From NCBI RefSeq assembly GCF_055900595.2, contig NZ_CM148325.1: a stretch of DNA of 64,000 nucleotides; one strand, given 5' to 3'. Positions 38,122-58,922 of this stretch are shown here, piece by piece. Numbering within the stretch: position 1 is the stretch's first letter; each line of letters begins with the position of its first letter. A program made the translations under genes and the position numbers. The notes beneath the pieces are model-generated. The model was not told where the DNA came from and searched no databases. It worked only from the letters and a program-made list of their open reading frames with translations.

Positions 38122-38144
38122 ATTTAAATGGTGCGATAATAGGA
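38122..38144. repeat. Partial copy of the thrW 3' end: distal att repeat of the thrW-integrated element
   Basis: TTTAAATGGTGCGATAATAGGA matches TTTGAATGGTGCCGATAATAGGA at 58841-58863 (tRNA 3' end plus 6 bp) with 1 mismatch and 1 indel. Confidence 0.75.
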
Positions 38145-38345: not shown

Positions 38346-38705
38346 ATGAGAATGACCAGCCGTAAAAAAGAGATACTCAGTTATTTTGAGCCGGATAACC
38401 TAGAATGGGTGACAGGTGAGATTGGTGCGCCGCCGTTCGATGTGTCGGGCGTGGCCTACCTGCTTCATGGCATGGTGTCGTTCGATAAGCGCCACCAGCT
38501 CGAATCAACCCGGCGCACACTGGAAAGCATGGTTGCTGGTGGACTGCTTGAGCGGGTGACAGTGTATGAATCGCGTCAGGTACGGCGCGGCGGTGAGACT
38601 AACGCAACGGTCGTGCGCTACGGTTTACCCGGTCACTGCGCTGTTATGCGCGATACTGGCGGCGCTGATAACGCAATATCAGGCGAATACATGCGGGTCA
38701 GTTAA
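38346..38705 (+). CDS. Hypothetical protein (119 aa)
   Basis: ORF only; no recognisable motif. Confidence 0.35.
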   Translation: MRMTSRKKEILSYFEPDNLEWVTGEIGAPPFDVSGVAYLLHGMVSFDKRHQLESTRRTLESMVAGGLLERVTVYESRQVRRGGETNATVVRYGLPGHCAVMRDTGGADNAISGEYMRVS

Positions 38706-39240: not shown

Positions 39241-39283
39241 GCGTCGTGAACCAATAGTGTACGTTTAGGTGGGTATTTTTCTG

Positions 39284-39718
39284 CTACTGACCAGGATAGA
39301 GCTGATGTGCCGGGTCAAGCCAGACAATATGGAATACATTACCGATGAAAAATCCATGTATGCGACCATATTCATTGCGCGATATGGCAAATTGATAAGG
39401 TGTATAACTCTGAAACTGTTCATTCAAATGCTGAAATCCCTTAGGTTCAGATGTAGTTTGCCAATCAATCGGATGTGACTTCAACGAACCACCGCGATCG
39501 GTGGTGAACTCTCGTTCAGTCATAGTGGAAAGGTCTTTGAGGCGGTCTAACACCTTGCAAAAATAAACAGGATTCTGAGCGCTGAAAGTAAATTTCTCAT
39601 GCGCCGCATCGATATACCGAAAAGAAAAGTTGATGGTCGTTATGCCTGAACCTGTTCCCCCAGGCACTATTTTTGTTTGCGAGGGTGCAATCTTCGACGC
39701 CCTGATTCTTTTCGCCAT
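39284..39718 (-). CDS. Hypothetical protein (144 aa) coupled to the Panacea-domain gene; candidate toxin/effector partner
   Basis: ATG 2 nt after the upstream stop with no SD of its own (translational coupling); no recognisable motif. Confidence 0.5.
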   Translation of the reverse strand: MAKRIRASKIAPSQTKIVPGGTGSGITTINFSFRYIDAAHEKFTFSAQNPVYFCKVLDRLKDLSTMTEREFTTDRGGSLKSHPIDWQTTSEPKGFQHLNEQFQSYTPYQFAISRNEYGRIHGFFIGNVFHIVWLDPAHQLYPGQ

Positions 39719-39720
39719 AT

Positions 39721-40176
39721 TTAGGAAGCCATCGAACGATAAAACTCAGCCGTTACACTTTTATCAATAACATTCTTGCACGGCGCATCTGATGGAACCC
39801 CTTCACGGGCCTCCAGCCACGGCTTTTCTTGGTGCGTCATCTGCTCCAGCTCATAAGCTGTATAACCGCCAAATACCTCATAGATTTCCTTTAGATGCTT
39901 TGACACATTCGCAGGTAACTCAGGGCAGGCAATCTCTTCGTCTATTGAGCGCCATTTGTAATCTGCAAATCTGGTATACAAATCTCTGGCTACAGGGCCA
40001 TGTACCCATGCTTCAAACTTGTCAGCAACCAGTTCTTCGCCATCATTCAGCGCCATGAACCAAGCATCAGCATAGAACACCATTTTTTGCAGTTTCAGCG
40101 GCGTCATAACATCCCCATGCTCTTGAGCAAAGCAAAGCAGGTAATCCGCTACGCTGTTAAGGGTTGTAACTGCCAT
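39721..40176 (-). CDS. Panacea-domain (DUF4065, SocA/GepA-like) protein; putative antitoxin
   Basis: AGGAG SD before ATG at 40176 (MAVTTLNSVADYLL...); LKLQKMVFYADAWFMALNDGEELV...FEAWVHGPV is characteristic of the domain. Longer ORF 39721-40407 is probably upstream read-through. Confidence 0.6.
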   Translation of the reverse strand: MAVTTLNSVADYLLCFAQEHGDVMTPLKLQKMVFYADAWFMALNDGEELVADKFEAWVHGPVARDLYTRFADYKWRSIDEEIACPELPANVSKHLKEIYEVFGGYTAYELEQMTHQEKPWLEAREGVPSDAPCKNVIDKSVTAEFYRSMAS

Positions 40177-40497
40177 TATCCAATCTCCTGCCGTATGTTT
40201 TCGTCTATAACTGTCCACTACCGTTAATAATCGCATATAACCACGGGTATTGCCCATCGTAAAATGCCATTTAAAGATTCTGCGTGATGGCTCACCATCC
40301 ACCGCGCAAGATACCCGGTGCGTTTGGCTGATAATCCGCAATTTGGTTGAAACCGTCCTGGAAACCTCAAGTTTGGAAACCAGCGACTTGCATCGTAGCT
40401 TTGCCATTCGGCGGTCATAGTTACTGCTATATCCCTTTATTGGCGAGACCTGCGAGAGGTTTTGTTGTTCGAATATATAAAGGTGAATAAAGGTAAT

Positions 40498-40683
40498 CTA
40501 CCTGCGCGGCGCAGGCTTCTTCCACTGGTAGGCGGGTGATCGCATCATTTCGCGAAATTTGTCACGCCGGGCTATATTGGCATTAACTGAGCGTTCTATC
40601 TCCCGTTGATCTGCCGGGGTTAGCTGGTGGCCTTCGTGCTCCAGTTTGGCGGTGGTCAATAAAGCTATTTCGCGTGGTGTCAT
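40498..40683 (-). CDS. Hypothetical small protein (61 aa)
   Basis: ORF only; charged, helical. Confidence 0.25.
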   Translation of the reverse strand: MTPREIALLTTAKLEHEGHQLTPADQREIERSVNANIARRDKFREMMRSPAYQWKKPAPRR

Positions 40684-40980: not shown

Positions 40981-41262
40981 CTACCTTTGCCTCTTGCCGC
41001 CATTTAACCGGAAGGCGTTACCGTTCGGTTGCGCTATCCCCATGCGGTGTTGCGTTTCGGTAACAGCTTTATGCAGGTCGCCAAATTCCTCAACCTTCAC
41101 GGGCGGGCGCTTCACGTTCTCCAGACACGTTTCACGGCGGCGCTTTATCCATTCCCGATCATCGTCCTCGCTGCATAACAGCATGACTTCCATCCATCGT
41201 GCGGCAGCTCTCCGGTATAGCCCTTTTGACACCAGCTCTTCAGCTTTCCTGTCCCTTATCAT
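40981..41262 (-). CDS. PerC-family transcriptional activator-like protein
   Basis: 93 aa; MIRDRKAEELVSKGLYRRAAARWMEVMLL matches the conserved PerC/Pch N-terminal signature (recalled). Confidence 0.55.
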   Translation of the reverse strand: MIRDRKAEELVSKGLYRRAAARWMEVMLLCSEDDDREWIKRRRETCLENVKRPPVKVEEFGDLHKAVTETQHRMGIAQPNGNAFRLNGGKRQR

Positions 41263-41295: not shown

Positions 41296-41420
41296 GGTGT
41301 TGGTTCAGTTGGTTCAGTTGGTTCAATTTGTAAAGATCGTTGTTTTTATTATGTTTTTTCTAAAATATTGAACCAACATCAACTCATTTTGAACCAACAC
41401 AGCCCAGCTCTGAACCAACA
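41296..41420. repeat. Iteron array I: 3 direct + 3 inverted GTTGGTTCA repeats around an AT-rich spacer (origin-like)
   Basis: GGTGTTGGTTCAGTTGGTTCAGTTGGTTCAATTTGTAAAG ... TTGAACCAAC, TTGAACCAACAC, TGAACCAACA; the first 40 nt are the exact reverse complement of 49541-49580. Confidence 0.7.
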
Positions 41421-41521
41421 ACACAGCGATAGCTTTGTGATTGGCCCGTTATTTTCTGGCTGATATTTGAGCGTATAACAGTGTTATACAGTGATATACT
41501 GTATGGATATTACTCACTGAT

Positions 41522-41977
41522 ATGGTCTTTGCAATGAGCAAATCTAATCTGGTCGCGTTCCGCATCCCATCTGAATTGCAGGATGAGTTTAATCGGTCTG
41601 TTCTCGCTTCTGGAGGGGATAAAACCTCCTGGCTTGTTGATGCGATTCGCATGAAGCTGGGACAGCCGGAAAAGTCTATTGATTCACGAATGTTTGGGCT
41701 GGTGGAGCGCATGGAAAAAGCTGCTGCGTCGCTTATTGCCGGAAAGCCGAACATCCCACCAAAGCCATATAACGAAACGGCAGTTATAAAGATCATTGCC
41801 GATACCATCCGACAGGGATTTGATAATGGGCGTGTGATAGCTGAACGGATCAATGAAGCAGGCTATCAAACAAAAGCTGGTAAAGCGTGGGATAAAGATA
41901 TTTACAGCGCGTGGAAGCGTCAGGGAAGCAATGCTGAAAAGTTAAAAGCGGTGATTGATTGTAAGGTCAGCGTATAA
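41522..41977 (+). CDS. Hypothetical protein (151 aa)
   Basis: ORF just downstream of iteron array I; no recognisable motif. Confidence 0.4.
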   Translation: MVFAMSKSNLVAFRIPSELQDEFNRSVLASGGDKTSWLVDAIRMKLGQPEKSIDSRMFGLVERMEKAAASLIAGKPNIPPKPYNETAVIKIIADTIRQGFDNGRVIAERINEAGYQTKAGKAWDKDIYSAWKRQGSNAEKLKAVIDCKVSV

Positions 41978-42056
41978 ACATGAGTGCCCATTGGAAAGCT
42001 GCTTGGGCCAATACCTTTATACACCAGCAGGTGGTGACGATAGGTGAGGATCAGGA

Positions 42057-42278
42057 ATGAAAGGCAGAACGCCACACATTGAACATCAAGCCAACCACTT
42101 CTCGGATGTTCGCAATGAGATGATTGCCATTCGCGGTGATATGCACGGCTTGGAGCGTCGAATTATTGATAAGATTGATGAAAATAGAGATAAGGCCAGT
42201 GAAAATCAAAAGTGGATCATCGGCCTGTTGATTTTATCAATTCTTATCCCGCTACTTATCGCATTGGTCACAAAATGA
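42057..42278 (+). CDS. Small membrane-anchored protein (73 aa), XhlA/holin-like architecture
   Basis: Charged N-terminal helical segment then C-terminal TM helix (WIIGLLILSILIPLLIALV). Confidence 0.4.
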   Translation: MKGRTPHIEHQANHFSDVRNEMIAIRGDMHGLERRIIDKIDENRDKASENQKWIIGLLILSILIPLLIALVTK

Positions 42279-42302
42279 ATATCCAATGTGTATGCTGTCG
42301 AT

Positions 42303-43671: not shown

Positions 43672-46398
43672 CTATTCCCATTCGCTAACATCTTTCATGC
43701 CACTGAGGGTAGCTACAATCCCGGCCCTTGTCAGTTTCACGAATTCTTCAGCCCCAACGGCATCACGAATTGCTTTCATGGCAATTTTATTGGCCGAAAA
43801 TCGTTTCTCTGCTGCGGCGATCGCTGCTGGTGATGCCCCTGCGCGCACTGCTTTTGTAGCTTCCTGAACGGCTTTCTCTATCGCATATCGACCACTTCTT
43901 GTCGCCCCAATCTTAGCCACAGCATTTCTTAGCGCGCCACCAGCAACCAAACCACTAATCGAACCAATTACACCACCGCCAAAGCCTCCAGCGATCGCAC
44001 CTGACTGTTGAACACCGTTCATAATCACGCCGACGATCTTTGGAAGGCCTGAATCGAGCGTTTTGAGAGCCTCAGTTGTTCTTCCCGTGCGCTCTACGTA
44101 TCGCTGCGGTCTGGTACTGGCTTTAGCGAGTACACCGAACTCTTTCATCATTCTACCGAGATCTGGCGCATGACGACTGATGGCGTTTACATTCTGCTGG
44201 GTCATGAGCTTGGCAAAATACTGGATACCTGACTCTTCACCGATTCCTCCCTTCTCTCCCTGCGCCACAGCATGCTGAAGAATAGATGCTATTGCAGGTT
44301 GGCGTTCTGCTTCCGGCAGCGCGGAGATAAGACGGTGAAAAGCTCCCGTTCCAGTGTTTGCGGATGCCTTAAGCGTATCGGCACCTTTTCTTACCATAGC
44401 GTCTGATGCGAGATCTCGACCAAAAACAGATTCGGCATTTTGTTTGGCGATAATGTAACTTTTAGAGAGATCGTTAGCTTTCTGCCATTCTGTGAGGAAG
44501 TTTCCTTTTTCAGCCATGATGCGCATGTCATCAGTGATAGCTCTGCGCATTTCTCCGGCAATCCGGGCGGCATTGGCCTTACCTGCCCGGGTGTTTGCTT
44601 GTTCAGCATCAGCAAACTTAGCACGCCATGCCTTCATCCCGTCGAAGGTTATGCCGCCACCTTGGTTGTTGGCAGCCTGAAACTGTTTCATCTCCGGGCT
44701 GAGTGGAACATTGGCTGCTTTTTCTGCTTGGACGACAGCCATTCCATTACTCATTTTCATCCTTTCGCGTGGCATCGTGCTTCGCAGTTCTGCCCATGCC
44801 ATATTCTCTGCTGTTTTCATATCACTGAGGCTCGCGATGATGCGCTCTTTAATTGCTGCGCTTTTTTCTGATGCGCTTCCAGACTCAGCACCGAAATCAG
44901 ACAACTGCTTATTCAACTTTGAGGATATTTCATTGAAGGCCGTAAGGTGAGCATCCTGAACATTCCCAGGAGTTGATGCCAGAACACCTTCTGCTTGGGC
45001 AATTCCACGACTACCTGAGCGCATTCCAGGCGTCAGGGTGTTGATATTAATACCAGTGATTTTCGCCGCCTTAGCGACATCATCTCTGACGTTTGATGCC
45101 TGCGATGCGATATGCTCTCGGCCTACGGCAGAACGCGCTGCTTTCGATACATCATTGGCGGTTTCCAGAGTATTTGCTGCCCCTAACACATGGCCTGATT
45201 GATTTGTATTACTCCGCAATACATCTCGCATTACGTCACTGGCTGTCTGTCCGCTCTTTATTAAAGCGCGTGCTCCTAGCGATCCTGCTAGGCCAATACC
45301 TGTCTCTTTTGCTAGGTCTTCTGGGCTGATCTGCCCGTTCTTTTGGGCGTTCACCAATGTACCTGGCAGGTTTTCTGCCAACATACTAGCCACCTTTGTG
45401 GCCGCACGTTCAGCACGTGGAGCGTTGGCAACTGAAGAAGCTGCGGTAGCTGCCTTTCCTGCACCTAATCCTGTAATAAGGTAAGGTGCTAGCTGCTCAC
45501 CAGCCTGCGCGTATGGATCTGTAGGTTGGTCTACTGGGCGAAAGACAGGTGATATGGGCGTGTATGTGCCATCACCCACACCAAGCTTCTGAGCTGCCCA
45601 TGCTCCGGCTGATTGCGCCGCATTGACTACCCCCACGCCTGCGTCCATTACATCAAACGGTATATTAGCAATCCCTCTGGCCATCTGCTCTGGCGCAGCT
45701 TTCAGTCCTGGCGAAAGATATTCCATCTCAGGATTAAGGTTAGACTTGGCTACTTGCTGCTGCGGTTCCCCGGCATTTTCATCGGCGAGAAACTGAGCTC
45801 TTTTCTGCTCCCATGAACTGGCTGTTGGTAGTCCTGCTTCTATGTTCTTAAATTGCTGACGTTTTGCTTCCCATGCAGAAATATCTCCCACCTGAGAGAT
45901 TTCTTTATCAAGCTCTGAGTAGTCAGGCTGCTGAAGATTGCGATGTTGACTGGTTTGTGCAAACTGCAAGATTTCACTGTCATCAGGGATTATTCCGGCA
46001 TCTGCAAATTTACTTACGTAATTAGCCGTTTCATCTGGCAGTGTAGATTTACCGTTTCTGACGGCATTAATACGAGCATAGCCAGAATTATACCCAGCCA
46101 ATGCCATACCTATATCACCAAATCGCTTCATTCCTTTATTGAGATGGTTTGCTGCGATATCCATTTGCTTTTCAAATGGCAGTGAGCGCGGATCTGTTCC
46201 ACGATAACCAGCATCACTCATTACTGAGGGCATCAGTTGAGCAAATCCTCTAGCTCCTTTCGGTGACTCGGCACTTCCGTTACCACTAGATTCATTGCCA
46301 ACTAATGTTTCCATCGTCCCTGATGGGAAACCATATTTTTCATCGAGATGACGGGAATAGGCTTTCTGTTTTTCTGTCAGTTGTGCCATCATTGCCAT
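43672..46398 (-). CDS. Large protein with N-terminal lytic transglycosylase (SLT) domain; podovirus gp16-like internal virion/ejection protein
   Basis: 908 aa; SLT motifs (GARGFAQLMPSV ... ALAGYNSGYARI) then long helical region and C-terminal hydrophobic segment. Confidence 0.65.
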   Translation of the reverse strand: MAMMAQLTEKQKAYSRHLDEKYGFPSGTMETLVGNESSGNGSAESPKGARGFAQLMPSVMSDAGYRGTDPRSLPFEKQMDIAANHLNKGMKRFGDIGMALAGYNSGYARINAVRNGKSTLPDETANYVSKFADAGIIPDDSEILQFAQTSQHRNLQQPDYSELDKEISQVGDISAWEAKRQQFKNIEAGLPTASSWEQKRAQFLADENAGEPQQQVAKSNLNPEMEYLSPGLKAAPEQMARGIANIPFDVMDAGVGVVNAAQSAGAWAAQKLGVGDGTYTPISPVFRPVDQPTDPYAQAGEQLAPYLITGLGAGKAATAASSVANAPRAERAATKVASMLAENLPGTLVNAQKNGQISPEDLAKETGIGLAGSLGARALIKSGQTASDVMRDVLRSNTNQSGHVLGAANTLETANDVSKAARSAVGREHIASQASNVRDDVAKAAKITGININTLTPGMRSGSRGIAQAEGVLASTPGNVQDAHLTAFNEISSKLNKQLSDFGAESGSASEKSAAIKERIIASLSDMKTAENMAWAELRSTMPRERMKMSNGMAVVQAEKAANVPLSPEMKQFQAANNQGGGITFDGMKAWRAKFADAEQANTRAGKANAARIAGEMRRAITDDMRIMAEKGNFLTEWQKANDLSKSYIIAKQNAESVFGRDLASDAMVRKGADTLKASANTGTGAFHRLISALPEAERQPAIASILQHAVAQGEKGGIGEESGIQYFAKLMTQQNVNAISRHAPDLGRMMKEFGVLAKASTRPQRYVERTGRTTEALKTLDSGLPKIVGVIMNGVQQSGAIAGGFGGGVIGSISGLVAGGALRNAVAKIGATRSGRYAIEKAVQEATKAVRAGASPAAIAAAEKRFSANKIAMKAIRDAVGAEEFVKLTRAGIVATLSGMKDVSEWE

Positions 46399-47708
46399 CC
46401 CTTAAGTTTTGCCTGATAGTAACTTTCCGGCAGATAGCCATGTGCGGTCACATAATCCTTAACCAGTGAAGGATCCTGCAACAGCATTTTGGTATCAGTT
46501 TCTTCGTCCTTAGATTTGGTTACAGGAATACCGAGCCCGGCAATCTGTCGTTTCTGCATTCGAATAATTACGTCCTGCGCTTTATTCAACTCTCGCAAAA
46601 ATGCCTCATTGCTGGTTGCTGACTTAATGCCATTTTGAGATTGCATAAGGGCAGCCCTTTCCCCTTCGGTTGGGTTAGAGCCAAAAGTCCCTTTGAGGCT
46701 AGGCAGAATAACCTTTAGGTTGTATTCATCAGCTTTGGCGCGTAGGCTTCGTGTGTCTTCTGCTACATCAGGAAGGAATCCAAACCCCAGCGTCAGGGGG
46801 TTATAGTTCTGCGAGCGGGTAACGGCCGAAGGATGTTTCCCTACAATTCCCGCCAGTTCATGACCCACTTCAAGCGCAGAGTTCAAGGAGTCGATGTTAC
46901 CTGCAACAGTATTAATTTTATCGTTCATCTTCTCCACTTTCGCCTGCTGTATCTTGCTCAGTTCAGCATTGAGCTTGTCTCTCTCGATGTCATTTTGAGC
47001 ACGTCCAAGTCGTGCTTTCAGAACCATTTCTCTCGTGCGTAGTTGGTTATCGGATAGGACTTTGAACTGCTCCATATCGAGACGTCGATTACCCTGTTCC
47101 GCATTAACCTGAGCATTATATGCGGATGTATCTGCGTTCTGCTGTGCAATGCTCTGCCCTTGCTGCTTCTCTTGAACACTAAAGTAACTATTTGGATCAG
47201 CATGGAGGTGGATGAGGTCAGTGATTCTGTTGAATTCCTGTGGGTCATTCTGCCAAGACTGATAAACCTCTTCAGCAGGAAGACCAAATCGCTGTAATAC
47301 TGGATTTGCCTGCTGAATGGCCTTCTGCATGGTCAGTGGATCTCCAGTTTGTGACGCAAGACGCAGATTCATGGCAGCGTCAGCGGTCTGTCGATTTTGC
47401 TCAGCATCAATGAATCCCATCTGTTTTTGAGAATCAGCCATAAACTGGGGATACTGGGCCATTAACTTCTGCACGCCAACACGATCATTATTAGCTACCG
47501 CACTACCCAACCGTGCCTGATATTCTTTTAACTGCTGGGAAATTTGCGCCTGCTGATTAATCTCAGCAACGCCTCTTAGCCCCTGTAGCGCCATTAAACC
47601 TACGTTTGGCTGCTGCTGATACTGCACAGGCTGAGGAACGGAAGAACGAGGAGCATTATCATTTTGCGGTGCCATGCTAGGCAGCCCGCCAAGTTGCCAT
47701 GTCGCCAT
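46389..47708 (-). CDS. Gln-rich coiled-coil protein (439 aa); gp15-like by size and position
   Basis: Overlaps neighbours by 1-10 bp; no enzymatic motif. Confidence 0.5.
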   Translation of the reverse strand: MATWQLGGLPSMAPQNDNAPRSSVPQPVQYQQQPNVGLMALQGLRGVAEINQQAQISQQLKEYQARLGSAVANNDRVGVQKLMAQYPQFMADSQKQMGFIDAEQNRQTADAAMNLRLASQTGDPLTMQKAIQQANPVLQRFGLPAEEVYQSWQNDPQEFNRITDLIHLHADPNSYFSVQEKQQGQSIAQQNADTSAYNAQVNAEQGNRRLDMEQFKVLSDNQLRTREMVLKARLGRAQNDIERDKLNAELSKIQQAKVEKMNDKINTVAGNIDSLNSALEVGHELAGIVGKHPSAVTRSQNYNPLTLGFGFLPDVAEDTRSLRAKADEYNLKVILPSLKGTFGSNPTEGERAALMQSQNGIKSATSNEAFLRELNKAQDVIIRMQKRQIAGLGIPVTKSKDEETDTKMLLQDPSLVKDYVTAHGYLPESYYQAKLKGWQ

Positions 47709-48385
47709 TAGAATCCAAGCCCCCCAACAAGACCAATAAGCCCACCACCAATAGCGCCGGCCGCAGTTCCTATTCCAGGAACAACGGAACCAAGTTGCGC
47801 ACCCGCTAAAGCGCCTGATGCTGCCCCACCAATACCACGCGCAAGACTGGATGGCTGCTGCGCCTGACCTGCACGAATAGCGCCAAGCCCCTGCAAGAGT
47901 TGTCCGGTATTATTGGCGTAGTTTTGCCCTGCCGTTGCCTGCCCTGATGCCGCATTCATCCCGACATTTAGCAGGTTTCCATAATTTTGCATTTGCCCAC
48001 TGAGCCAATTGTTATAAAGCATGGGCGCAATGGAAGATAACTGGTTACTGGTAGCTGTTGAGCCAAGCCCCCCGGTAGCTTCTGCTGAGACAAGGTTCTG
48101 ATAACGGGCCTGATCTGCCTGTGTTTTATATAAACCAGAACCAAAGAAATCATTCGCGGCTTTATTCTGCCCTTCCAGAGTCATCAGTCCTTGTAGTTGT
48201 TGTAAAGCAGGCAATCCGACTTCTGCATACGGCTTGAGATTATTCATCACCGTATTCCACTGCTCGCGCTGCAAATCAATTGCCTGCTGCTGGGCCTTCG
48301 CCTGAGCTTTAGAGGCACCACCATCACCGCCTTTTTCGTATACGGCACGATTGAGATGTTTATGAGCTATGTGGGTAATTAACAT
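47708..48385 (-). CDS. Protein with C-terminal glycine-zipper membrane segment (225 aa); gp14-like
   Basis: C-terminus GIGGAASGALAGAQLGSVVPGIGTAAGAIGGGLIGLVGGLGF. Confidence 0.5.
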   Translation of the reverse strand: MLITHIAHKHLNRAVYEKGGDGGASKAQAKAQQQAIDLQREQWNTVMNNLKPYAEVGLPALQQLQGLMTLEGQNKAANDFFGSGLYKTQADQARYQNLVSAEATGGLGSTATSNQLSSIAPMLYNNWLSGQMQNYGNLLNVGMNAASGQATAGQNYANNTGQLLQGLGAIRAGQAQQPSSLARGIGGAASGALAGAQLGSVVPGIGTAAGAIGGGLIGLVGGLGF

Positions 48386-48840
48386 TCGCTGAATTCCTTA
48401 TATTGTTGCCGAGTTAACTGATAAAGCGTTACGCCGACGGGTTTACCACATCTGATATAAGCATCATCAAGGTGACCAACACGGGTAGCGCCAAGCAAAC
48501 GGATAATTGCCCGTCCGTATTTGGTGGTGTCAGGAACCATGGTAATGCTGTTAAGGAATGGTGAGTTTTCGAGAAGCCATTTGCAGAATAATCGATGCCC
48601 TTGCAGTGCATATTCACCACGGAATCCGGGGTCGTACACCGCATGGCATTCAACAACGCTATGCCAGAAGTTACGCACTTCATGAACGCCAGCCAGCACT
48701 AATCCTTCGTAGATGCCGAGATATACCGCATCAGGCTTGATGTAGTACGTGTGCCCCGGCTCAACAATATTTTCGGTATTGCCTGGCTCGTTAAGAAAGG
48801 CCTGTAATCGCACAGGGTTATCAATAAATTTTAGTTCCAT
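48379..48840 (-). CDS. Hypothetical protein (153 aa); first gene of the four-gene module (gp13-like position)
   Basis: ORF with coupled start; no recognisable motif. Confidence 0.5.
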   Translation of the reverse strand: MELKFIDNPVRLQAFLNEPGNTENIVEPGHTYYIKPDAVYLGIYEGLVLAGVHEVRNFWHSVVECHAVYDPGFRGEYALQGHRLFCKWLLENSPFLNSITMVPDTTKYGRAIIRLLGATRVGHLDDAYIRCGKPVGVTLYQLTRQQYKEFSEC

Positions 48841-49018: not shown

Positions 49019-49465
49019 AACGCCCCCTTAGAACTGTATAAAACAACAGTTATTATAGTTTCACAAATCGCAATATTCATCATCGTAATTGCAAAATATG
49101 AAACAAATAGCACAAAAAAATGCCACCGCTCAGTAGCTGGTGGCATCGTTCTGTGTGTCAGGTTTTGACAGGTTTTTTATGGACTCTAAAAACTATATTT
49201 ATGGTGTCGCATTACTCTTCACGGCAGGCGCTTTTCAGTTCTGCCCTTGCTTCTGGCTCCATTGGTAATTTGATTCGCGATCAGCTATGCGGATGGTTTG
49301 CTGAACAGGCATAACAACTTCTCAGAGGCTGTTTTTTGAACTACGAAAATTTCGTAGTGCTCACTTTCAAAAACGTCACGCCCTTGTACACAGGATTTTA
49401 CGAAAGTCTCGTAAAACACTCTCTGATGCCAGCCAGGTGTTGTGCGCATCAATTCAGTCACATTG

Positions 49466-49580
49466 TGTTGGTTCAAAATACCGTGTTGTTGGTTCAGTGT
49501 TGGTTCAATAAAAAGAATAAAATCCTTATAAAACAATACTCTTTACAAATTGAACCAACTGAACCAACTGAACCAACACC
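49466..49580. repeat. Iteron array II: 3 direct + 3 inverted GTTGGTTCA repeats around an AT-rich spacer, next to the primase gene
   Basis: Same architecture as array I; 49541-49580 is the exact reverse complement of 41296-41335. Confidence 0.7.
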
Positions 49581-49602: not shown

Positions 49603-52362
49603 TCATTCTTCAGATGAGTTATAATCTCCTGGCTGGTAATTGAGTACATAAACGTTTATTTGTCGTCCCTGAATACGTGGTGATTTTCTTTGGTATCCAC
49701 GACCGCTGTTTGGTGGGGTTAGCATCCCGGCTTTTTTCAACACTTCAGCAAACTGTTTTGCGTTGAAACCACATGCGATCTCCTTTTCAAATGTGGCCGG
49801 GAATGTGTAGAAAATCATTGGGCTTTCGTCATGTTCTCCACGCTGACGGTATCCGGCTAAATCTTTGATGGGCAAATCTGCCGGGCTGTATGGAAATGGT
49901 GCAAAACGGCTAAGCCCATAGGCATTAAGAAATGCCTCCGTTTGTTCAATAATCTGCTGATGTTCTTTGTTACCTGTGCCGAACTCGCGCAACCATGCGT
50001 TATAGCTGTGCTGTATCGCATCACGGCATGTCTGAGCATCCCAGCCTGTTACAACCTCGCCTAACAGCAATGCGGCCTCCAGAATGGCAAATCGCGCGGC
50101 TACACGGTGAACCTGCTCACCATAATCGGATGGGATCAGGCTTCTCCATCTGCTTTCGCAATCACGAACGGTTTTAATAGCCTGTTGCTGGTGGTCTGCC
50201 AGCCATTTAATCCACTCACGCCCGGACGCGCCGTGGTGATGCTGGTAAGCGTCTTTCAGTGCGTCTGCGTGCTGTTTTCCGTTCTGGTAATCGTGAAAGC
50301 GTACTGCTTTACTCAACGGAATATTCAGCAGTCGCACCAGTTGCCCGGCTTTGGTTTTTCGCCCGGAAGTAGCGATAAATGTTTCTAAATCCATTTCTCC
50401 GGTGCTGATTGCCACTGTACGCCAACGTTTTAGATCCCGGTTTCCACCATCTTTAGCGCCTTGCAGTTTCCCTACACCGTTAAATAACGCATAGGCAGAC
50501 TGTGAAACGCTGACAGGATCAGCGCCCTGACCAACTTCATCAAGCGGCATTAGTCCGTCATTGTGGGCGGCGGCCTCATTTGCCAGCCCCAGCGCGGTTC
50601 CGTACCACGTCAGCCGCAGTAAATCAGGGTTGCCGTATAAGCTGCTCGCCACGTTTGCCGTGGTGGTCTTACCTGCGCTCGACTGCTCATAGAAATGAAT
50701 GCCGAACCCGTCAGCGCCCACCAGCCCAATCAATGGCGCTGCCAGTGCTGCGCCGATCCCGGTCATCATTGAATAGTTACCAAAGGCCAGACGCGCCACG
50801 TTATCACGCCAGCTTTTCGCGCTCCCTGAGACGGTATATCCGGCTGCGGCTGAGCTTCTCCCGCTGAACAGCACAGGATTTTCAGGTGTTCCGATGATTT
50901 CCCCATCAGGCATGATGTACGCTCCGCATTGCCAGCCAGTGGCATGAGCAACACGCCACAATTCACGAGAGCCACTGCGTTGTAGCCAGTCTGCCAGTAT
51001 TGCTCTGAGGCTGCTTTTGGTCGTGACATTTACCCCACCAGCTTTAAGTGTGCGCCATCCTTCACGTTCACCAATATCAGCCAGTGGAATGGCAGCGGTT
51101 GTCGGCGTTTCAGAACCAAACGACAGCCAGCGAAGAATGAGATACTGGTCTTTATCGTCTCTGCCAGTACCGATAACGCTTAACGGAGAACATAACCAGC
51201 TTTCGTTATTGATGATTTCTCCACTCTGGCTGTCAGCTCTCGGAGATACCCAATAAATACCATCCTCGCGGCTTTCTATTCTTGGTTTCAGTGGGTCGGT
51301 ATCCATAACCTTAAAATCGCTTCCCTCAATGGTCTGTGGCTCCTGTTTCACGCCATTACCCTGTGGTTGGTACATTGACTTATTGAACGCTTCTGTGGCG
51401 CATTTAATGCCGTGTTTTTGGTGGTAATCATTCCAGTCTGCTTTGTGATCTGTCGGGGGTAATGCCACCCATCCAGAAACAGATAAAGCTGCTTTTTCTG
51501 CTGCTATTCTCCCCGTGTTTTGTCTTCCTTCGCTGTGGTCGTTATCCGCAGCAATGATGATTTGTGCTGAAGGATATTTATCCCGCAGTACCTGGGCGAC
51601 ATATAACAGGTTCCCGGCATCAATCGCCGCCACTGTCAGCGCCTCTGGACGAATTAAATGGGCAGATAATGCCGTTGCCAGCCCTTCTGCGATTAAGATG
51701 CTCTGTGTTGTTTCTGGTGCGTTTATGGCGTGATATGCCCCCCGCTTTGCTGAACCTGTCAGGAGTCTTTTTTCACCATGTGAGGTAATAGTCTGTGCTG
51801 CTGTGACTGCGCCGGATTTATCCACCAGCGCCAGCAACAGAGATCCATCGGGCAACACGGGGAATGTAAAATCACCTACCCCTTTCGCAACCAGATAATC
51901 AGATTTGCCGTTTACAGCCTTTCTGCGCATGTCATCAAACTGACGGGAAAACGTATCCCGTCTTTGTTGTTCGTCCTTCTCTGCCCTTTTCAGGCGCTCC
52001 TGTTCGCGTCGCTGGCGCTCGGTTTCCAGTTGTTCCCGTTTCTGGCTGGTGGCTTCTGGTGTTTCCGTTGTCCGGTAATCAATACCCAGAACATCAGCGG
52101 CAAGAAGCGCCGCCTCTGTTGTGTCGCAGTTATTTACGCGTTTAATTAAATCCAGCCCATCACCAGCGCCGCACTGATTACAGATGAAGCTACCGCGCCC
52201 GTTGTCATCGAACCGGAATCGATCTTTGCCCCCACATGCAGGGCAGGGAGCATGACGGCGCGGAGAGTCAGGGACATTTATGTTCAGGCAGCCCAGCACA
52301 TGAGGCCAGTTGTTTTCAGACGCACTGATAACCTGACGGATAAGATCAATGTTTCGCATCAC
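49603..52362 (-). CDS. Primase-helicase (P4 alpha-like: Zn-binding primase + TOPRIM + P-loop NTPase)
   Basis: 919 aa; N-terminal zinc ribbon (CPACGGKDRFRFDD...CNQCGAGDGLDLI), TOPRIM-like acidic region (IIIAADNDHSEGRQNTG), Walker A-like SSAGKTTT. Confidence 0.85.
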   Translation of the reverse strand: MMRNIDLIRQVISASENNWPHVLGCLNINVPDSPRRHAPCPACGGKDRFRFDDNGRGSFICNQCGAGDGLDLIKRVNNCDTTEAALLAADVLGIDYRTTETPEATSQKREQLETERQRREQERLKRAEKDEQQRRDTFSRQFDDMRRKAVNGKSDYLVAKGVGDFTFPVLPDGSLLLALVDKSGAVTAAQTITSHGEKRLLTGSAKRGAYHAINAPETTQSILIAEGLATALSAHLIRPEALTVAAIDAGNLLYVAQVLRDKYPSAQIIIAADNDHSEGRQNTGRIAAEKAALSVSGWVALPPTDHKADWNDYHQKHGIKCATEAFNKSMYQPQGNGVKQEPQTIEGSDFKVMDTDPLKPRIESREDGIYWVSPRADSQSGEIINNESWLCSPLSVIGTGRDDKDQYLILRWLSFGSETPTTAAIPLADIGEREGWRTLKAGGVNVTTKSSLRAILADWLQRSGSRELWRVAHATGWQCGAYIMPDGEIIGTPENPVLFSGRSSAAAGYTVSGSAKSWRDNVARLAFGNYSMMTGIGAALAAPLIGLVGADGFGIHFYEQSSAGKTTTANVASSLYGNPDLLRLTWYGTALGLANEAAAHNDGLMPLDEVGQGADPVSVSQSAYALFNGVGKLQGAKDGGNRDLKRWRTVAISTGEMDLETFIATSGRKTKAGQLVRLLNIPLSKAVRFHDYQNGKQHADALKDAYQHHHGASGREWIKWLADHQQQAIKTVRDCESRWRSLIPSDYGEQVHRVAARFAILEAALLLGEVVTGWDAQTCRDAIQHSYNAWLREFGTGNKEHQQIIEQTEAFLNAYGLSRFAPFPYSPADLPIKDLAGYRQRGEHDESPMIFYTFPATFEKEIACGFNAKQFAEVLKKAGMLTPPNSGRGYQRKSPRIQGRQINVYVLNYQPGDYNSSEE

Positions 52363-54138: not shown

Positions 54139-54329
54139 TTTTCACCACCAAGAATTACCAGCTCTGCACGAGCATCGTTAACCAAAGATGAGCACGCTTT
54201 AATCGCATCCACGACATCAGCAGCGTCCATTTCTTCAGCCGAAAGACTGACAGCAACCAGGACAGCCGCTGCTTGCTCGATTAATTGAAGTGCGGACGTA
54301 AGTCGAGGGGCATTAATTGAGTTATTCAT
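54135..54329 (-). CDS. Hypothetical small protein (~64 aa)
   Basis: Start taken at [10 protein letters not shown]; Ala-rich helical. Confidence 0.3.
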   Translation of the reverse strand: MNNSINAPRLTSALQLIEQAAAVLVAVSLSAEEMDAADVVDAIKACSSLVNDARAELVILGGEK

Positions 54330-55389
54330 TGGTTGCCCCCGTTTTTCCTGGCATTTCGCCACCTTCCAGCAGGAAATGAACGTCACGAACGGCGAGATCC
54401 AATATCGCGAGTAACGCCTTCAGTCTTTCGTCTCGTGAGGGAGAGTTGCTCACCAGAATGTCGTTAATCACTTCTGTCAGTGTGATGATCTGGCTTGTGC
54501 GTTCGAGGGGATCCATATGCACATCGTAGGTTTTAATCATGTGCCACCTCCATGCGGATACGACCAGCAAAAAAGCAGACGTGATCGCGCACCAGAGAAC
54601 GGCGAGCATCGCGTTCAGACTCGGCAGCAATATGATGAATTTTGGCGGTAATTGTCGGGCAATCGCGGCGAACTGCGGCGATAATCCAGATAAATTGCGG
54701 TTTTTGGGTAGGGGTAGTAGCCAGCATGTGGCAGCCTCCTTGTACTGGGAATTCTTCCCACCACCGGAGCTGCGAAACTCGCTGGTGGTGGACTGAACAG
54801 AGTTCGCAGTACCGGCGTACAAGGAAACCGGCCAGCCTTTCGGCTGCCCTGTCCAGCCCACCATAATTTTGCAAGCGACGCGGATTATAACCACATCACT
54901 GAAAAAAGTGTGAGTCTGGCTAACGGCACAAAAAAAGACGCTCGGCGCGTCATGTGTCGCCTCGTACATTTCCGGGCTGCGAAACCCGGCACCCGTTTTA
55001 TGAGGTGCCTTATAACCATAAACCGTGTTGCCGCATAACGGCAAGCTCTTTTTTATGGACTCCGAAAACTCACTATTGGAAGAACCAGAAGCACAGTACA
55101 TCGCGCTCATTTCGTTAACGTCACGCGCGTGGACGAATGTTTTTGTGGAGTCACTACACGAGCGGAAGACATCATCTACGACCAGAAATTTTCTGGCGCA
55201 GCCGCTGACCTTCTCAAGGCTAATATCATCGCCCGAGATTTCTGGTATGGTTAAGGCATCCGTTCCGGCCACCAGCAAATGATAAACTTTGCTTGTATCT
55301 GCTGTATTAATGCCTGACTTTGCCGTCATATTTCTGGATTTTGGCGACATACCAGCCAGTGAAAATGTCTTCTTCTGGATGGGTATCAT
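54322..55389 (-). CDS. Uncertain ORF (355 aa); may be two genes, with an internal start at 54540 behind a strong GGAGGTG SD
   Basis: Continuous frame, but upstream two-thirds is low-complexity and a well-placed SD+ATG at 54540 suggests a separate 73-aa product ([19 protein letters not shown]...). Confidence 0.3.
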
Positions 55390-56403: not shown

Positions 56404-56835
56404 TTAGGCGGCGTTAAACGCGTCCGGGTAGAGTTTCAGAATGTCGGCAATTTCCTGCTGAGAAAGTCCGTTGTGATCATTTATGTTCGCAAGATGGTTA
56501 ACATGAGTGATCACTTTCAGAACATCACCACGGCAGGAGAAACGGTAGCGAAGGTGTGTTCCGATACCATCAGGATTCTTTTCGTCGATACGCTCCAGAG
56601 TGATTCCAAGCTGGCGTTCTAACTCTGTTGCATAGTTACGACCAGAAGACAGACGGCAGTAGCGAAGAATGTCATTTTCTGTCCATCCCTCTATACCAGT
56701 ACGCAGCATATAGACTCTGGCACGATGCTTTTTCGGTGTGCGCTTTGGTGCTTGAAGGGATTTTGTAAGGGGCGTAACATCAGATACACGAATATCTGAA
56801 TTAGCCGCCTGTAATGGGCGGTTTTTCTTTTCCAT
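56404..56835 (-). CDS. Hypothetical protein (143 aa)
   Basis: ORF between alpA and the antirepressor-like gene; its stop overlaps the alpA start. Confidence 0.4.
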   Translation of the reverse strand: MEKKNRPLQAANSDIRVSDVTPLTKSLQAPKRTPKKHRARVYMLRTGIEGWTENDILRYCRLSSGRNYATELERQLGITLERIDEKNPDGIGTHLRYRFSCRGDVLKVITHVNHLANINDHNGLSQQEIADILKLYPDAFNAA

Positions 56836-57038
56836 CAGGCCACCTCGTCTCTAGATTCTAATATACACTTCTCAATCCATTCATCTATTTCAGACTCAAC
56901 AAAAGCAATTGCCCGACTTCCAATTTTTACCTGTTTAGGGAACCTCCCCTGACTAATAAGACGATAAATCCATGCTTTGCTATAACCAGTTCGCCTTTGA
57001 ACTTCAGAGAGACGAATTAATGAATTGTAATTAGCCAT
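56835..57038 (-). CDS. alpA: AlpA-family phage transcriptional regulator / excisionase-like protein
   Basis: 67 aa; LIRLSEVQRRTGYSKAWIYRLISQGRFPKQVKIGSRAIAFVESEIDEWI is the AlpA HTH signature. Confidence 0.85.
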   Translation of the reverse strand: MANYNSLIRLSEVQRRTGYSKAWIYRLISQGRFPKQVKIGSRAIAFVESEIDEWIEKCILESRDEVA

Positions 57039-57466
57039 TTATTAATATCCTGTACTAATGACGCAATAACCCCCTCCTGCAACGAATGGCGAGAGTTTTA
57101 TTTGCGTCAAATGTCGAATACGCCAAAGACCACAATATGAAAAACATATTGCGGTCTTTTATAAAAGATAGTCAGATTGTTTTGGTTTGTTTGCTCCACA
57201 AGGGTAGAGCTACCCTGCATTTCGGCAGGATCACGCTATTAGGCGTGACATCCAGTAGTTTTAAAGAACAATTGCGCTTTGTCAGCGCCAAAGCCTGTTA
57301 AAGAACATTCCGCTTTGTCAGCGACGTAGAAGGCTCAATACACCTTCGTTTATAAAAGAGCGATTGCCCTTCTCCAGGGCTAACTGTTAAATAGCAATCC
57401 TCTGTGAGTTTTTATCAATCTACTCCCCTATACTTTAGTAAACCTCTGTATACTTGTCCAGTTGTT

Positions 57467-58681
57467 TCATGCGTGTTTTTCAAACACCATATGCACCACA
57501 TTTCCGCCATGCTCGAGAGAATCCATATAGTCGGCATACCATTGAAGCATCTCCCGCCTTCCATCCAGATATTGCGCATGGTTGTATGTGCCACGAATTG
57601 AGTTCTTATCAACGTGAGCGAGCTGCGTTTCTATCCACGCGGTGTTATAGCCCTGCTCATGCAAAATCGTACTCATAGTGTGCCGGAACCCATGACCAGT
57701 TACACGTCCAGCGTAGCCAATGCGCTTAAACACTTGGTTTATGCTGGCCTCGCTCATTGTTTTCCTTGGATCATTGCGCCCGGGAAACATAAGAGGGTAA
57801 TTGCCTGTTATTTCTCTAATCTTCCCAATAAGCGAAAGAGCCTGCTCAGACAATGGCACAATATGAGGCCGCCGCATTTTCATACGTGAAGCGGGTATCT
57901 CCCAGATAGCCTTGTTGAAATCAATTTCATCCCATAATGCGCCACGTAGTTCGCCAGTCCGCAAGCCGGTGATAATCAGTAGACGAGCCGCCATAACAAC
58001 CAATGCGCTTCCTGAGTAACTGGACAATGCCTTGAAAAAATCAGGTAATTCTTTGGCTGTAAGGAAAGGGTAATGATTAGATTCATGGCCTTGCATCGCG
58101 CTAGTAAGGTCTGGTGCAGGGTTATACTCTGCGCGACCAGTGACTATTGCATAGCGGAAAACTTCCCCGCACCGTTGCCTCACTTTTTTGGCTTTTTCTG
58201 TAGCACCGCGCCCCTCGATGCGACGCAGCACATTCAGAAGTTCAAGTGGTTTGATTTCGGCGATGGGTTTTTTGCCAATGTAAGGGAACACATCTTTGTT
58301 GAAGGCTTCGAGGATGTCTGAAGCATAACCAGCAGACCATTTTTTTAATTTGCTGCTGTGCCACTCAAGGGCAATATCTTTGAAGGTGTTGTTTAACTGC
58401 GTTTCCCGGGCAATCTTTTCCTCTCGTTTCGCTTCCATCGGATCGATACCACCAGCGATACCTCTTTTCGCATCTTCACGTTTTGCCCGAGCATCGGCTA
58501 GAGTAACCTCAGGATAAACACCTAGTGCCAATAGCTTCTCTTTACCAGCTACACGATATTTAAGTCGCCAGTATTTACCTCCATTAGGTTTTACCAAGAG
58601 ATACAAACCGCCACCATCGGCCAGCTTGTAAGCCTTCTCTTTTGGCTTGGCTGTGTCTATTTGACGGGCATTGAGTTTCAC
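57467..58681 (-). CDS. int: P4-type tyrosine integrase
   Basis: 404 aa; N-terminal MKLNARQIDTAKPKEKAYKLADGGGLYLLVKPNGGKYWRLKYR; catalytic region HGFRHT...(Y); directly downstream of thrW, same orientation. Confidence 0.9.
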   Translation of the reverse strand: MKLNARQIDTAKPKEKAYKLADGGGLYLLVKPNGGKYWRLKYRVAGKEKLLALGVYPEVTLADARAKREDAKRGIAGGIDPMEAKREEKIARETQLNNTFKDIALEWHSSKLKKWSAGYASDILEAFNKDVFPYIGKKPIAEIKPLELLNVLRRIEGRGATEKAKKVRQRCGEVFRYAIVTGRAEYNPAPDLTSAMQGHESNHYPFLTAKELPDFFKALSSYSGSALVVMAARLLIITGLRTGELRGALWDEIDFNKAIWEIPASRMKMRRPHIVPLSEQALSLIGKIREITGNYPLMFPGRNDPRKTMSEASINQVFKRIGYAGRVTGHGFRHTMSTILHEQGYNTAWIETQLAHVDKNSIRGTYNHAQYLDGRREMLQWYADYMDSLEHGGNVVHMVFEKHA

Positions 58682-58846: not shown

Positions 58847-58922
58847 TGGTGCCGATAATAGGAGTCGAACCTACGACCTTCGCATTACGAATGCGCTGCT
58901 CTACCAACTGAGCTATATCGGC
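58847..58922 (-). tRNA. thrW: tRNA-Thr (anticodon CGU), thrW; integration site
   Basis: 76-nt minus-strand sequence GCCGATATAGCTCAGTTGGTAGAGCAGCGCATTCGTAATGCG...GGCACCA folds as a cloverleaf with CGT anticodon and CCA end. Confidence 0.9.

Follow-up and report, generated by a model that had tools for sequence, protein, structure and literature searches.

The primase-helicase gene described here very probably encodes the predicted self-loading replication initiator of a phage-inducible chromosomal island (PICI) of the EcCIMP1 type. It is located in a 20.7-kb island (38135-58863) at tRNA-Thr within the window, by which we mean the whole 64-kb stretch of DNA that was analyzed. Both the gene and the island are already known from the published EcCIMP1 of Escherichia coli MP1, and the island is a PICI, not a P4-type satellite. 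The primase of MP1 (WP_001244111) was identical to the primase-helicase of the window at 913 of 918 residues (99.5%), EcCIMP1 showed 98.9% nucleotide identity to the island over 16.7 kb, and both iteron modules described below were present in MP1 too. EcCIMP1 occupies the same tRNA-Thr site and has the same att core, TCCTATTATC. EcCIMP1 measures 19,963 bp and, unlike it, the island of the window contains two additional genes (39243-40495), one for a Panacea-domain protein and one of 144 aa. The segment at 41400-42297 also differs, with MP1 having an alpA_1/xis-like gene there.

EcCIMP1 is induced by the P22-like podovirus Kapi1, and its helper-dependent excision, circularization, and low-frequency transfer are documented in the original report (Pick, Stadel and Raivio, ISME J 2025, PMC11773190). 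Its authors regard EcCIMP1 as phylogenetically distant from EcCICFT073. The paper labels the gene only as DNA primase and describes neither an origin, iterons, nor the type of helicase (PMC11773190). Relative to the searched passages of the paper, the change of the iteron word among relatives, an inverted second origin module, and a 107-bp copy of a terS pac region are additions of the present analysis. The positions of all features are collected in Table 1.

Table 1. Features of the primase-helicase gene and its island, in window coordinates (residues in 918-aa numbering)
Feature	Position	Strand	Description
Primase-helicase gene	49603..52359	-	918 aa from ATG 52359; listed ORF 49603..52362, 919 codons from GTG 52362
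Cys4 primase zinc ribbon	52153..52260	-	aa 34-69; CPAC...CNQC at aa 39-63; PF08273
TOPRIM catalytic domain	51406..51699	-	aa 221-318; EGLATA 225-230, AADNDH 270-275; PF13362
DUF927 helicase core	50431..51267	-	aa 365-643; Walker A K564, Walker B D607/E608; PF06048
C-terminal winged-helix-like domain	49606..49992	-	aa 790-918; putative iteron-binding domain
Origin module B (putative)	49467..49577		six GTTGGTTCA copies; first one 25 bp past the stop codon of the primase
Origin module A (putative)	41299..41419		other six GTTGGTTCA copies; 3 tandem, 43-bp A+T-rich spacer, 3 spaced
Intrinsic-terminator-like hairpin and T-run	49111..49155	-	inverted repeat; terminator scan match 49137-49122; pattern match only
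att core TCCTATTATC, right end of island	58854..58863	-	inside tRNA-Thr(CGT) 58847-58922
att core TCCTATTATC, left end of island	38135..38144	-	2 matches versus 0.07 expected
Integration zone	56835..58681	-	tyrosine integrase 57467-58681 and AlpA regulator 56835-57038; Pfam
P4-type immunity RNAs in Ash-family gene	54781..55008	-	upstream of replication genes; C4/CI-like 54781-54868, isrK-like 54931-55008
Late zone between origin modules	43672..48840	-	P22-type gp14 (DUF2824), gp7, gp20-like, and gp16-like+SLT ejection genes; Pfam, PHROGs

ATG 52359 is codon 2 of the listed open reading frame. It is the start used by RefSeq and by 2,326 database members and is likely the start of the primase-helicase. 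Pfam searches detected Zn_Ribbon_Prim (PF08273) at aa 35-70 (E = 2.8e-15), Toprim_3 (PF13362) at aa 222-319 (E = 1e-14), and DUF927 (PF06048) at aa 366-644 (E = 3.5e-47), all in the numbering of the 919-codon GTG frame, from which 1 is subtracted to obtain the 918-aa numbering. A Walker A motif (SSAGKTT, aa 560-566) and a Walker B motif (LMPLDEV, aa 603-609) were read from the sequence. In an alignment of 59 primase-helicase sequences reaching down to ~27% identity, D272, K564, D607, and R676 were invariant, and E225 and E608 were nearly invariant. A preliminary description had reported a primase-helicase with zinc ribbon, TOPRIM, and P-loop domains at 49603-52362, and the Pfam matches and motifs bear this out, the TOPRIM domain being present with intact EGLATA and AADNDH motifs. 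The CHC2 zinc finger (PF01807) for which it had proposed a check was not detected at E ≤ 0.01; the finger is a Cys4 ribbon of the kind found in T7 gp4 and P4 alpha (PF08273).

The protein consists of two lobes with a disordered linker (aa 334-350) between them, and its AF2 model had a pLDDT of 92. The fold of the N-terminal lobe matched fragments of DnaG and T7 gp4 primase (2au3 and 1nui). When aligned with residues 5-339 of P4 alpha, the N-terminal primase showed 33.7% identity. P4 alpha contains a CPVC...CNQC ribbon and an EGYATA-type motif, and the pattern CPxCGGxDRFRFDD...CNQC is common to both proteins. Judged by sequence and model, this lobe belongs to the DnaG-superfamily primases of the P4 alpha/T7 gp4 type and has predicted priming activity.

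The helicase half had been expected to be of the D5 type, and this expectation failed. No D5_N, DUF5906/Pox_D5, or Primase_Cterm domain was found in the primase-helicase by Pfam, whereas D5_N, DUF5906, and Pox_D5 were all present in P4 alpha. A tblastn search of the window with residues 340-777 of P4 alpha also gave no match. By contrast with this lack of detectable similarity to the helicase and origin-binding half of P4 alpha, residues 403-814 of the primase-helicase matched SaPIbov1 Rep (PDB 8tch) by sequence at E = 1.4e-11, and a sequence match to SCCmec Cch (PDB 5dgk) was obtained at E = 0.012. In a Foldseek search with the AF2 model, the best PDB match was Cch (E = 9.5e-23, target TM 0.75), and SaPIbov1 Rep was matched at E = 2.6e-22 with a target TM of 0.69; target TM values for the Rep/Cch fold matches were in the range of 0.69-0.77. 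The SF3 structures 7ola, 8xj7, and 6k9e were weak fold matches (E = 5e-5 to 7e-4). On this evidence, the helicase half is not of the D5/P4 type and groups with the self-loading helicases SaPIbov1 Rep and SCCmec Cch, the C-terminal lobe being a predicted DUF927 AAA+ helicase with a winged-helix end. Rep and Cch are DUF927 self-loading, MCM-like initiator helicases, although only 16-18% identical to the primase-helicase. They also differ from it in lacking a fused TOPRIM primase: SaPIbov1 relies on a stand-alone AEP-type primase, and no partner primase is known for Cch, whereas here a primase of the P4 alpha type is fused at the N-terminus.

The fold of the C-terminal domain resembled the C-termini of Rep and Cch as well as the oriT-binding winged-helix protein TcpK; only fold comparison gave such matches, and a profile search of the domain against PDB sequences returned nothing significant. 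In SaPI Rep helicases, the C-terminal domain binds iterons directly downstream of rep (PMC7581432). A C-terminal winged-helix domain with an iteron origin directly downstream, which is a feature of Rep/Cch helicases, was also found here, and by analogy with SaPI Rep the domain may be the iteron binder. When identity was calculated for each domain, the C-terminal domain alone did not track the iteron changes described below, and all domains diverged together. Because per-domain identity singles out no domain, the proposed iteron binding by the winged helix draws on the fold match and the SaPI Rep analogy.

We counted 12 exact copies of the 9-bp iteron GTTGGTTCA in the window, compared with 0.64 expected; a count of 12 was not attained in any of 100 shuffles. 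The iteron array beside the primase-helicase, also part of the preliminary description, is therefore real and exceeds chance by a wide margin. Starting at the stop codon of the primase, module B consists of three tandem copies of the iteron, a 43-bp spacer (84% A+T), and three inverted copies spaced at 11 and 21 bp. Module A is a complete second copy, inverted relative to module B and 8.1 kb away from it. It was conserved in L001, L002, L010, and L018. The primase was present in 551 of 5,426 complete E. coli genomes, and module A co-occurred with it in the same 551. All PICI origins have two iteron sets around an A+T-rich spacer, and the pri-ori of EcCICFT073 is functional (Fillol-Salom et al. 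2018, PMC6092414). Each module of the window shows this layout of two iteron sets flanking an A+T-rich region. The order of the pri-rep-ori module of EcCICFT073, a primase and then an origin made up of two iteron sets (PMC6092414), is the same in the island. The hairpin downstream of module B is likely the end of the replication operon. A promoter scan found no sigma-70-like promoters around either module, and a literature search for the iteron words returned unrelated papers only.

Across Enterobacterales, the iteron word shifts with the divergence of the primase, and the layout of the array is kept. Relatives with ~80% identical primases (Klebsiella, Salmonella, and Pectobacterium) retained GTTGGTTCA, and relatives with primases of 59%, 49%, and 43% identity had GTTGTCTCA, GTCGGTTCA, and GTGACCGG/CCGGTCACA, respectively, with position and layout unchanged. 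The first iteron was always found ~25-60 nt after the primase stop codon, whether the next gene encoded SSB, ProQ, PerC, or gp14. An alternative function of the GTTGGTTCA arrays would be that of operators, at which an island transcription factor (e.g., PerC, AlpA, or an Ash/Bro protein) controls perC and the late genes, in place of origins. In favor of this, module A occupies the region 37-160 bp ahead of the perC start codon, module B separates the replication operon from the late genes, and the negative promoter scan makes activator-dependent promoters conceivable. An operator role is nevertheless improbable, given that the distance of the first iteron from the primase stop codon is maintained whatever gene follows, that the word changes with the primase, and that three iterons, an AT-rich spacer, and three inverted iterons constitute the documented origin layout of PICIs and SaPIs.

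With the arrays taken as origins, the role of module A is the weakest part of our model. By analogy with crr and ori of P4, module A is most likely a second binding or loading site, and it could also, or instead, act in regulation. In P4, crr directly follows alpha and ori is 4.5 kb away; here, module B follows the gene and module A is kilobases off. In the Salmonella relative, the same two-module arrangement was observed around different cargo, with the modules 6.6 kb apart. Relatives from Klebsiella and Pectobacterium carried their second iteron set next to the first, and this second set had a spacer rich in G+C, not in A+T; a second module thus does not have one and the same role throughout the family. 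The two complete, inverted origin modules, split by the late zone, distinguish the island from EcCICFT073 and from the published PICI plan. We tentatively raise the possibility, which we consider rather doubtful, that the island uses a split two-site origin whose inverted modules bracket a captured cassette of P22-type ejection genes. If both modules were loaded by the primase-helicase, looping cooperation like that of P4 ori and crr would be possible; alternatively, the bracketed late cassette could be selectively over-replicated or allowed to invert. Neither module looping nor over-replication or inversion of a cassette is known from PICIs.

The island itself has the organization of a Gram-negative PICI. 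Its border was found only with the 10-bp att core taken from the EcCIMP1 paper; no repeat of the tRNA 3' end longer than 13 bp was detected. The left limit of homology with APEC E19025 was at ~38061. As in Gram-negative PICIs (10-20 kb), int and alpA are adjacent and co-oriented at one end, the genes are unidirectional, and the att site is specific. Its genes run in the order int, alpA, Bro zone, primase, ori, and late zone, in line with the published plan of int-alpA, a Bro/Ash zone with C4/isrK RNAs, primase, ori, and late zone (Mageeney et al. 2023, PMC10111431). That study counts DUF927 and Prim_Zn_Ribbon among the Pfam families it groups under PICI "Primase" (PMC10111431). The Rfam scores were 81.1 bits for the C4 RNA (gathering score 45) and 69 bits for the isrK RNA (gathering score 50). 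The late zone departs from the plan, with ejection-protein genes in place of capsid, terS, or rpp genes. In the island ORFs that were scanned, Pfam and PHROG detected no capsid, terminase, or lysis genes, and four virion ejection-protein genes were present; gp14, gp7, gp20-like, and gp16-like were 84, 58, 26, and 25% identical to their Kapi1 counterparts, respectively. PADLOC gave no hits among the distal cargo genes. Separately, we observed that a 999-aa ORF left of the island is a UG5-nitrilase defence reverse transcriptase; it showed no similarity to the large late-zone proteins of relatives or to Vat.

We then consider whether the gene could encode an alpha-type replicase from a true satellite of the P4 family, as the preliminary description had proposed; such a replicase would have a D5-type SF3 helicase, serve an element with a P2-like helper, and work through ori/crr. 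Besides the alpha-like primase with its shared ribbon and EGYATA-type motifs, the island encodes an integrase resembling that of P4 (42.5% identity to P4 Int) and has C4 and isrK RNAs, an Ash-family gene, and two separated iteron sites that recall crr and ori. As in P4 alpha, primase, helicase, and, putatively, origin binding reside in one polypeptide. The helicase half contradicts this assignment, with DUF927 and a Rep/Cch fold in place of D5_N, DUF5906, and Pox_D5, as do the other genes. Sid, Psu, Delta, Epsilon, Gop, Beta, and cII were not detectable in the island (tblastn, E ≤ 1), and when all P4 proteins were searched against the window by tblastn, sid, psu, delta, and epsilon gave no match better than E = 0.08. 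The late zone carries P22-type ejection genes, the putative packaging site is a pac region of the P22 type, not a cos site of the P2 type, and the nearly identical EcCIMP1 is mobilized by a P22-like podovirus and not by a P2-like phage. The P4 iteron is of the TGTTCACC type. It differs from GTTGGTTCA, and the helpers and late genes of the two elements differ too. Membership of the P4 family is thus largely refuted and very unlikely. What holds of the earlier proposal is a predicted primase-helicase of a phage satellite with a P4 alpha-like primase and a putative origin downstream; the D5 helicase and the P4-type satellite itself give way to a DUF927 helicase and an EcCIMP1-like PICI.

Least likely of all is that the gene is a functionless remnant of a decayed P22-like prophage, as its neighbors gp14, gp7, gp20, and gp16 and the first naming of the region in strain MP1 as an incomplete prophage (PMC11773190) might suggest. 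Against this, the ORF is intact and its catalytic residues are conserved. Besides its spread among E. coli genomes, the primase has 360 records with at least 99% identity, and another chromosomal site (yicC/dinD) carries the same module set together with a different integrase. The island is bounded by precise att repeats, the gene order is that of Gram-negative PICIs and not of P22, and EcCIMP1 excises, circularizes, and transfers with its helper.

The EcCIMP1-type island also contains a 107-bp copy of a P22-type terS pac region, at 55135-55241. A search for the P22 pac 22-mer with up to three mismatches found nothing; the pac-like site, which was located through the 107-bp terS homology, is identical to P22 pac at 15 of 22 positions. 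The terS of Kapi1 is unrelated to the P22 gp3 type, which is found in IME10, Bas106-type, and P22-like phages. The split origin and the P22 gp3-type pac region lead to the tentative prediction that efficient helpers would be phages with a P22-type small terminase, not Kapi1, and capture of this pac region might account for the very low frequency of transfer with Kapi1.

From these results, we propose the following model. A P22-like helper phage would induce the island, and AlpA-driven transcription would override the C4/CI-type RNA immunity. The winged-helix domain of the primase-helicase would bind the GTTGGTTCA iterons 25 bp past its own stop codon, and oligomers would form on both iteron sets, opening the 43-bp A+T-rich spacer that lies between them. 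Helicase rings could then load onto the single-stranded DNA, and the TOPRIM domain would prime for host DNA polymerase III. The excised circle would thereby be amplified for packaging in helper capsids.

The replication genes first called P4-type are thus reassigned to the replication module of EcCIMP1, a PICI with experimental support. The protein family, annotated as "TOPRIM and DUF927 domain-containing protein" and comprising 20,711 clusters of 50% identity at E ≤ 0.001 (~2,600 clusters at E ≤ 1e-30), combines a P4 alpha-like primase with a helicase of the staphylococcal Rep/Cch type. Because of this fusion, a match to a zinc-ribbon/TOPRIM primase alone cannot separate P4-like elements from PICIs; they are told apart by the helicase half and the late genes. 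The covariation of iteron and primase, the duplicated and inverted origin around the late cassette, and the captured P22-type pac region are testable in MP1 and Kapi1.

The primase-helicase ORF was present exactly at the position given in the preliminary description, as 919 codons read from a GTG (see the table below). Codon 2 is an ATG (52359), the start used by RefSeq and by a 2,326-member protein cluster, giving a protein of 918 aa. The zinc ribbon, TOPRIM domain and P-loop helicase that had been proposed were identified as Zn_Ribbon_Prim, Toprim_3 and DUF927, with Walker A and B motifs. In an alignment of 59 homologues, down to ~27% identity, D272, K564, D607 and R676 were invariant, and E225 and E608 were nearly so. 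Two expected domain types were replaced by others: zf-CHC2 by a finger of the T7 gp4/P4 alpha type, and a P4-like D5 helicase half by DUF927, with its matches to SaPIbov1 Rep and Cch. A single long helix rich in charged residues (QKREQLETERQRREQERLKRAEKDEQQRRD...) is predicted for aa 101-147 (window 51919-52059), which separate the zinc ribbon from the TOPRIM domain; conservation within the protein is lowest here, with 47-53% identity in relatives that are ~80% identical overall.

Features of the island and of its primase-helicase
Feature	Position	Strand	Remarks
att core TCCTATTATC	38135-38144		one island end
Distal cargo	38346-40683
PRiA4_ORF3 protein	38698-39240		distal cargo
144-aa ORF	39284-39718		distal cargo
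Panacea/SocA-domain protein	39721-40407		distal cargo
perC	40981-41262		adjoins module A
Module A	41299-41419		six GTTGGTTCA copies; just upstream of perC
P22-type cassette	43672-48840	-	gp14/DUF2824, gp7, gp20-like, gp16-like with N-terminal SLT lytic transglycosylase domain
Terminator-like hairpin	49111-49155	coding strand	beyond module B
Module B	49467-49577		other six GTTGGTTCA copies; begins 25 bp from primase stop
Primase-helicase	49603-52362	-
Zn_Ribbon_Prim	aa 35-70		919-codon numbering; Pfam, E 2.8e-15
Toprim_3	aa 222-319		919-codon numbering; Pfam, E 1e-14
DUF927	aa 366-644		919-codon numbering; Pfam, E 3.5e-47
Cys4 ribbon			CPAC...CNQC
TOPRIM-region motif	225-230		EGLATA
TOPRIM-region motif	270-275		AADNDH
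Walker A	560-566		SSAGKTT
Walker B	603-609		LMPLDEV
C4 (CI) antisense RNA, P4/P1-type	54781-54868	-	Rfam 81 bits, above gathering threshold
isrK-like RNA	54931-55008	-	Rfam 69 bits, above gathering threshold
107-bp terS-like segment	55135-55241	+	antisense to Ash-family ORF 54322-55389; sharp edges
att core TCCTATTATC	58854-58863		inside tRNA-Thr; other island end

The N-terminal third and P4 alpha are homologues (33.7% identity across alpha residues 5-339) with identical ribbon and EGYATA-type motifs, whereas alpha continues into D5_N, DUF5906 and Pox_D5 and the window protein has DUF927 instead. By sequence, residues 403-814 matched SaPIbov1 Rep (PDB 8tch, E 1.4e-11) and residues 552-781 matched SCCmec Cch (5dgk); the Cch1 model was the only helicase match in NCBIfam. 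An AlphaFold2 model built from the 59-sequence alignment (mean pLDDT 92) showed two lobes separated by a disordered linker (334-350). Its best fold match in the PDB was Cch (E 9.5e-23, target TM 0.75-0.77), alongside SaPIbov1 Rep (E 2.6e-22, target TM 0.69); DnaG and T7 gp4 primase fragments matched the N-terminal lobe, and MCM and SF3 helicases matched weakly. These sequence and fold matches indicate that the protein is a P4 alpha-type primase fused to a Rep/Cch-type self-loading helicase. The family comprises 20,711 clusters (50% identity) at E<=0.001 and 2,591 at E<=1e-30, and many members span the full length.

The island spans 20.7 kb between its att cores, and APEC E19025 carries it as a clean insertion at the tRNA-Thr site. 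From the tRNA end, the order is integrase, AlpA, AntA antirepressor, DUF4222, Ash-family gene, small ORFs, primase-helicase, module B, P22-type ejection genes, module A, PerC and distal cargo. This is the four-zone plan of Gram-negative phage-inducible chromosomal islands (PICIs), namely integration, a Bro zone with immunity RNAs, replication and captured late genes (Mageeney et al. 2023, PMC10111431). A tblastn search of the window with every P4 protein found only Int (42.5%), the alpha N-terminus and a cI-region ORF; Sid, Psu, Delta, Epsilon, Gop, Beta and cII gave no match. The island and EcCIMP1 of E. coli MP1 share 98.9% identity across 16.7 kb and 913 of 918 primase residues, and the two have the same tRNA-Thr site and att core (PMC11773190). 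According to its 2025 description, EcCIMP1 is a PICI that undergoes excision, circularisation and transduction only when the P22-like podovirus Kapi1 is present; the available part of that paper labels the gene 'DNA primase' and mentions no origin, iterons or helicase type (PMC11773190). The element is a PICI, EcCIMP1, already known both as an element and through its annotated protein family. Of the proposed P4-type satellite replicase, the satellite replicase with its origin stands; the module belongs to a PICI, however, and its helicase is of the Rep/Cch type instead of the P4-type D5 kind.

The iteron array expected beside the gene was found as module B. The 9-mer GTTGGTTCA occurs in 12 exact copies in the window against 0.64 expected, a count reached by none of 100 shuffles. 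Read from the primase stop, module B opens with a tandem triplet, followed by a 43-bp spacer (84% A+T) and a further three copies in inverted orientation, spaced 11 and 21 bp. In Klebsiella, Salmonella and Pectobacterium islands with ~80% identical primases, GTTGGTTCA is repeated 12-13 times, and directly after the primase stop comes the first module. More distant relatives have other words, GTTGTCTCA at 59%, GTCGGTTCA at 49% and GTGACCGG/CCGGTCACA at 43% primase identity, and keep the position and layout of tandem triplet, spacer, inverted copies and second set. Iterons at the canonical position thus covary with the primase-helicase. Per-domain identity did not set the C-terminal domain apart as one tracking iteron change, so we infer the iteron-reading domain from fold and analogy, which point to the winged-helix C-terminus.

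Module A reproduces the whole module B layout in inverted orientation relative to B. Both modules were also found in MP1, ABU 83972, APEC E19025 and FDAARGOS_1256, the last with its island between yicC and dinD and a different integrase. Among 5,426 complete E. coli genomes, the 551 that carried the primase were also the ones with the module A region. In a Salmonella relative, the two modules of the same inverted pair are separated by 6.6 kb and enclose other cargo (ProQ, PerC and a TMP_2-domain protein). In Klebsiella, Pectobacterium and more distant relatives the second iteron set adjoins the first, and its spacer is G+C-rich in Klebsiella and Pectobacterium. P4 offers a precedent for two sites, with crr directly after alpha and ori 4.5 kb away. 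Module A may be a crr-like site, a second loading site, a perC regulator or a cassette-capture scar.

The protein combines domains with intact motifs, homology to primase and self-loading helicase families and a winged-helix C-terminus; an A+T-rich spacer separates the iteron sets, and the island is near-identical to an experimentally established satellite. In the mechanism we propose, the winged helix would bind the iterons, oligomers would melt the spacer, the helicase part would load itself and the TOPRIM lobe would prime for the host polymerase, with expression probably gated by AlpA and the C4-type RNA. The Ash-family gene, located upstream of the replication genes, contains the C4 and isrK RNAs; their presence points to P4-type RNA-based immunity inside a PICI.

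The four-gene P22-type cassette lies between modules A and B, and identity to Kapi1 proteins drops along it (gp14, 84%; gp7, 58%; gp20-like, 26%; gp16-like, 25%). Related islands of Klebsiella (L005/L006), Salmonella (L007) and Pectobacterium (L009) keep int, alpA, Bro, primase, ori and PerC; their late zones differ, the P22 ejection cassette being replaced by SSB or ProQ and then either proteins of ~1,000 aa (in one case with a TMP_2 tape-measure domain) or an SLT protein of 594 aa. In the distal cargo, the 144-aa ORF and the Panacea/SocA-domain protein may be a toxin-antitoxin or defence pair; no distal cargo gene had a PADLOC match, and EcCIMP1 of MP1 lacks segment 39243-40495. Just outside the left att site, a 999-aa ORF (33950-36949, +) with no Pfam match was a full-length PADLOC match to the RT_UG5-nitrilase defence reverse transcriptase (E 7.7e-288, profile 79-901/907). 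With an IS1 transposase gene (33135-33638) directly upstream of it, its N-terminus or promoter may be disrupted. Farther away, 20073-24326 (-) encodes a 1,417-aa intimin-like inverse autotransporter adhesin (NCBIfam IatC, Ilp and intimin N-terminal models).

The 107-bp segment was 91.6% identical to nt 268-374 of the small-terminase gene (489 nt) of coliphage Bas106, and IME10 was among the further phages with a match; against P22 gene 3 the identity was 86%. The start of the segment coincides exactly with the position annotated as P22 pac (gene 3 nt 268-289), where the window 22-mer GAATGTTTTTGTGGAGTCACTA is identical to P22 pac at 15 of 22 positions. E. coli islands L001, L002 and L010 have the segment, and the relatives in Klebsiella, Salmonella and Pectobacterium lack it. 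Kapi1 terS (429 nt) is unrelated, and the island has no similarity to it. Judged by sequence, the segment is a candidate captured pac site, in which case preferred helpers would have P22-type terS; the very low transfer of EcCIMP1 reported for Kapi1 (PMC11773190) fits such a preference. What is added here to the known element is modest and testable: iterons that covary with the primase-helicase, a split inverted origin and a pac-like segment.
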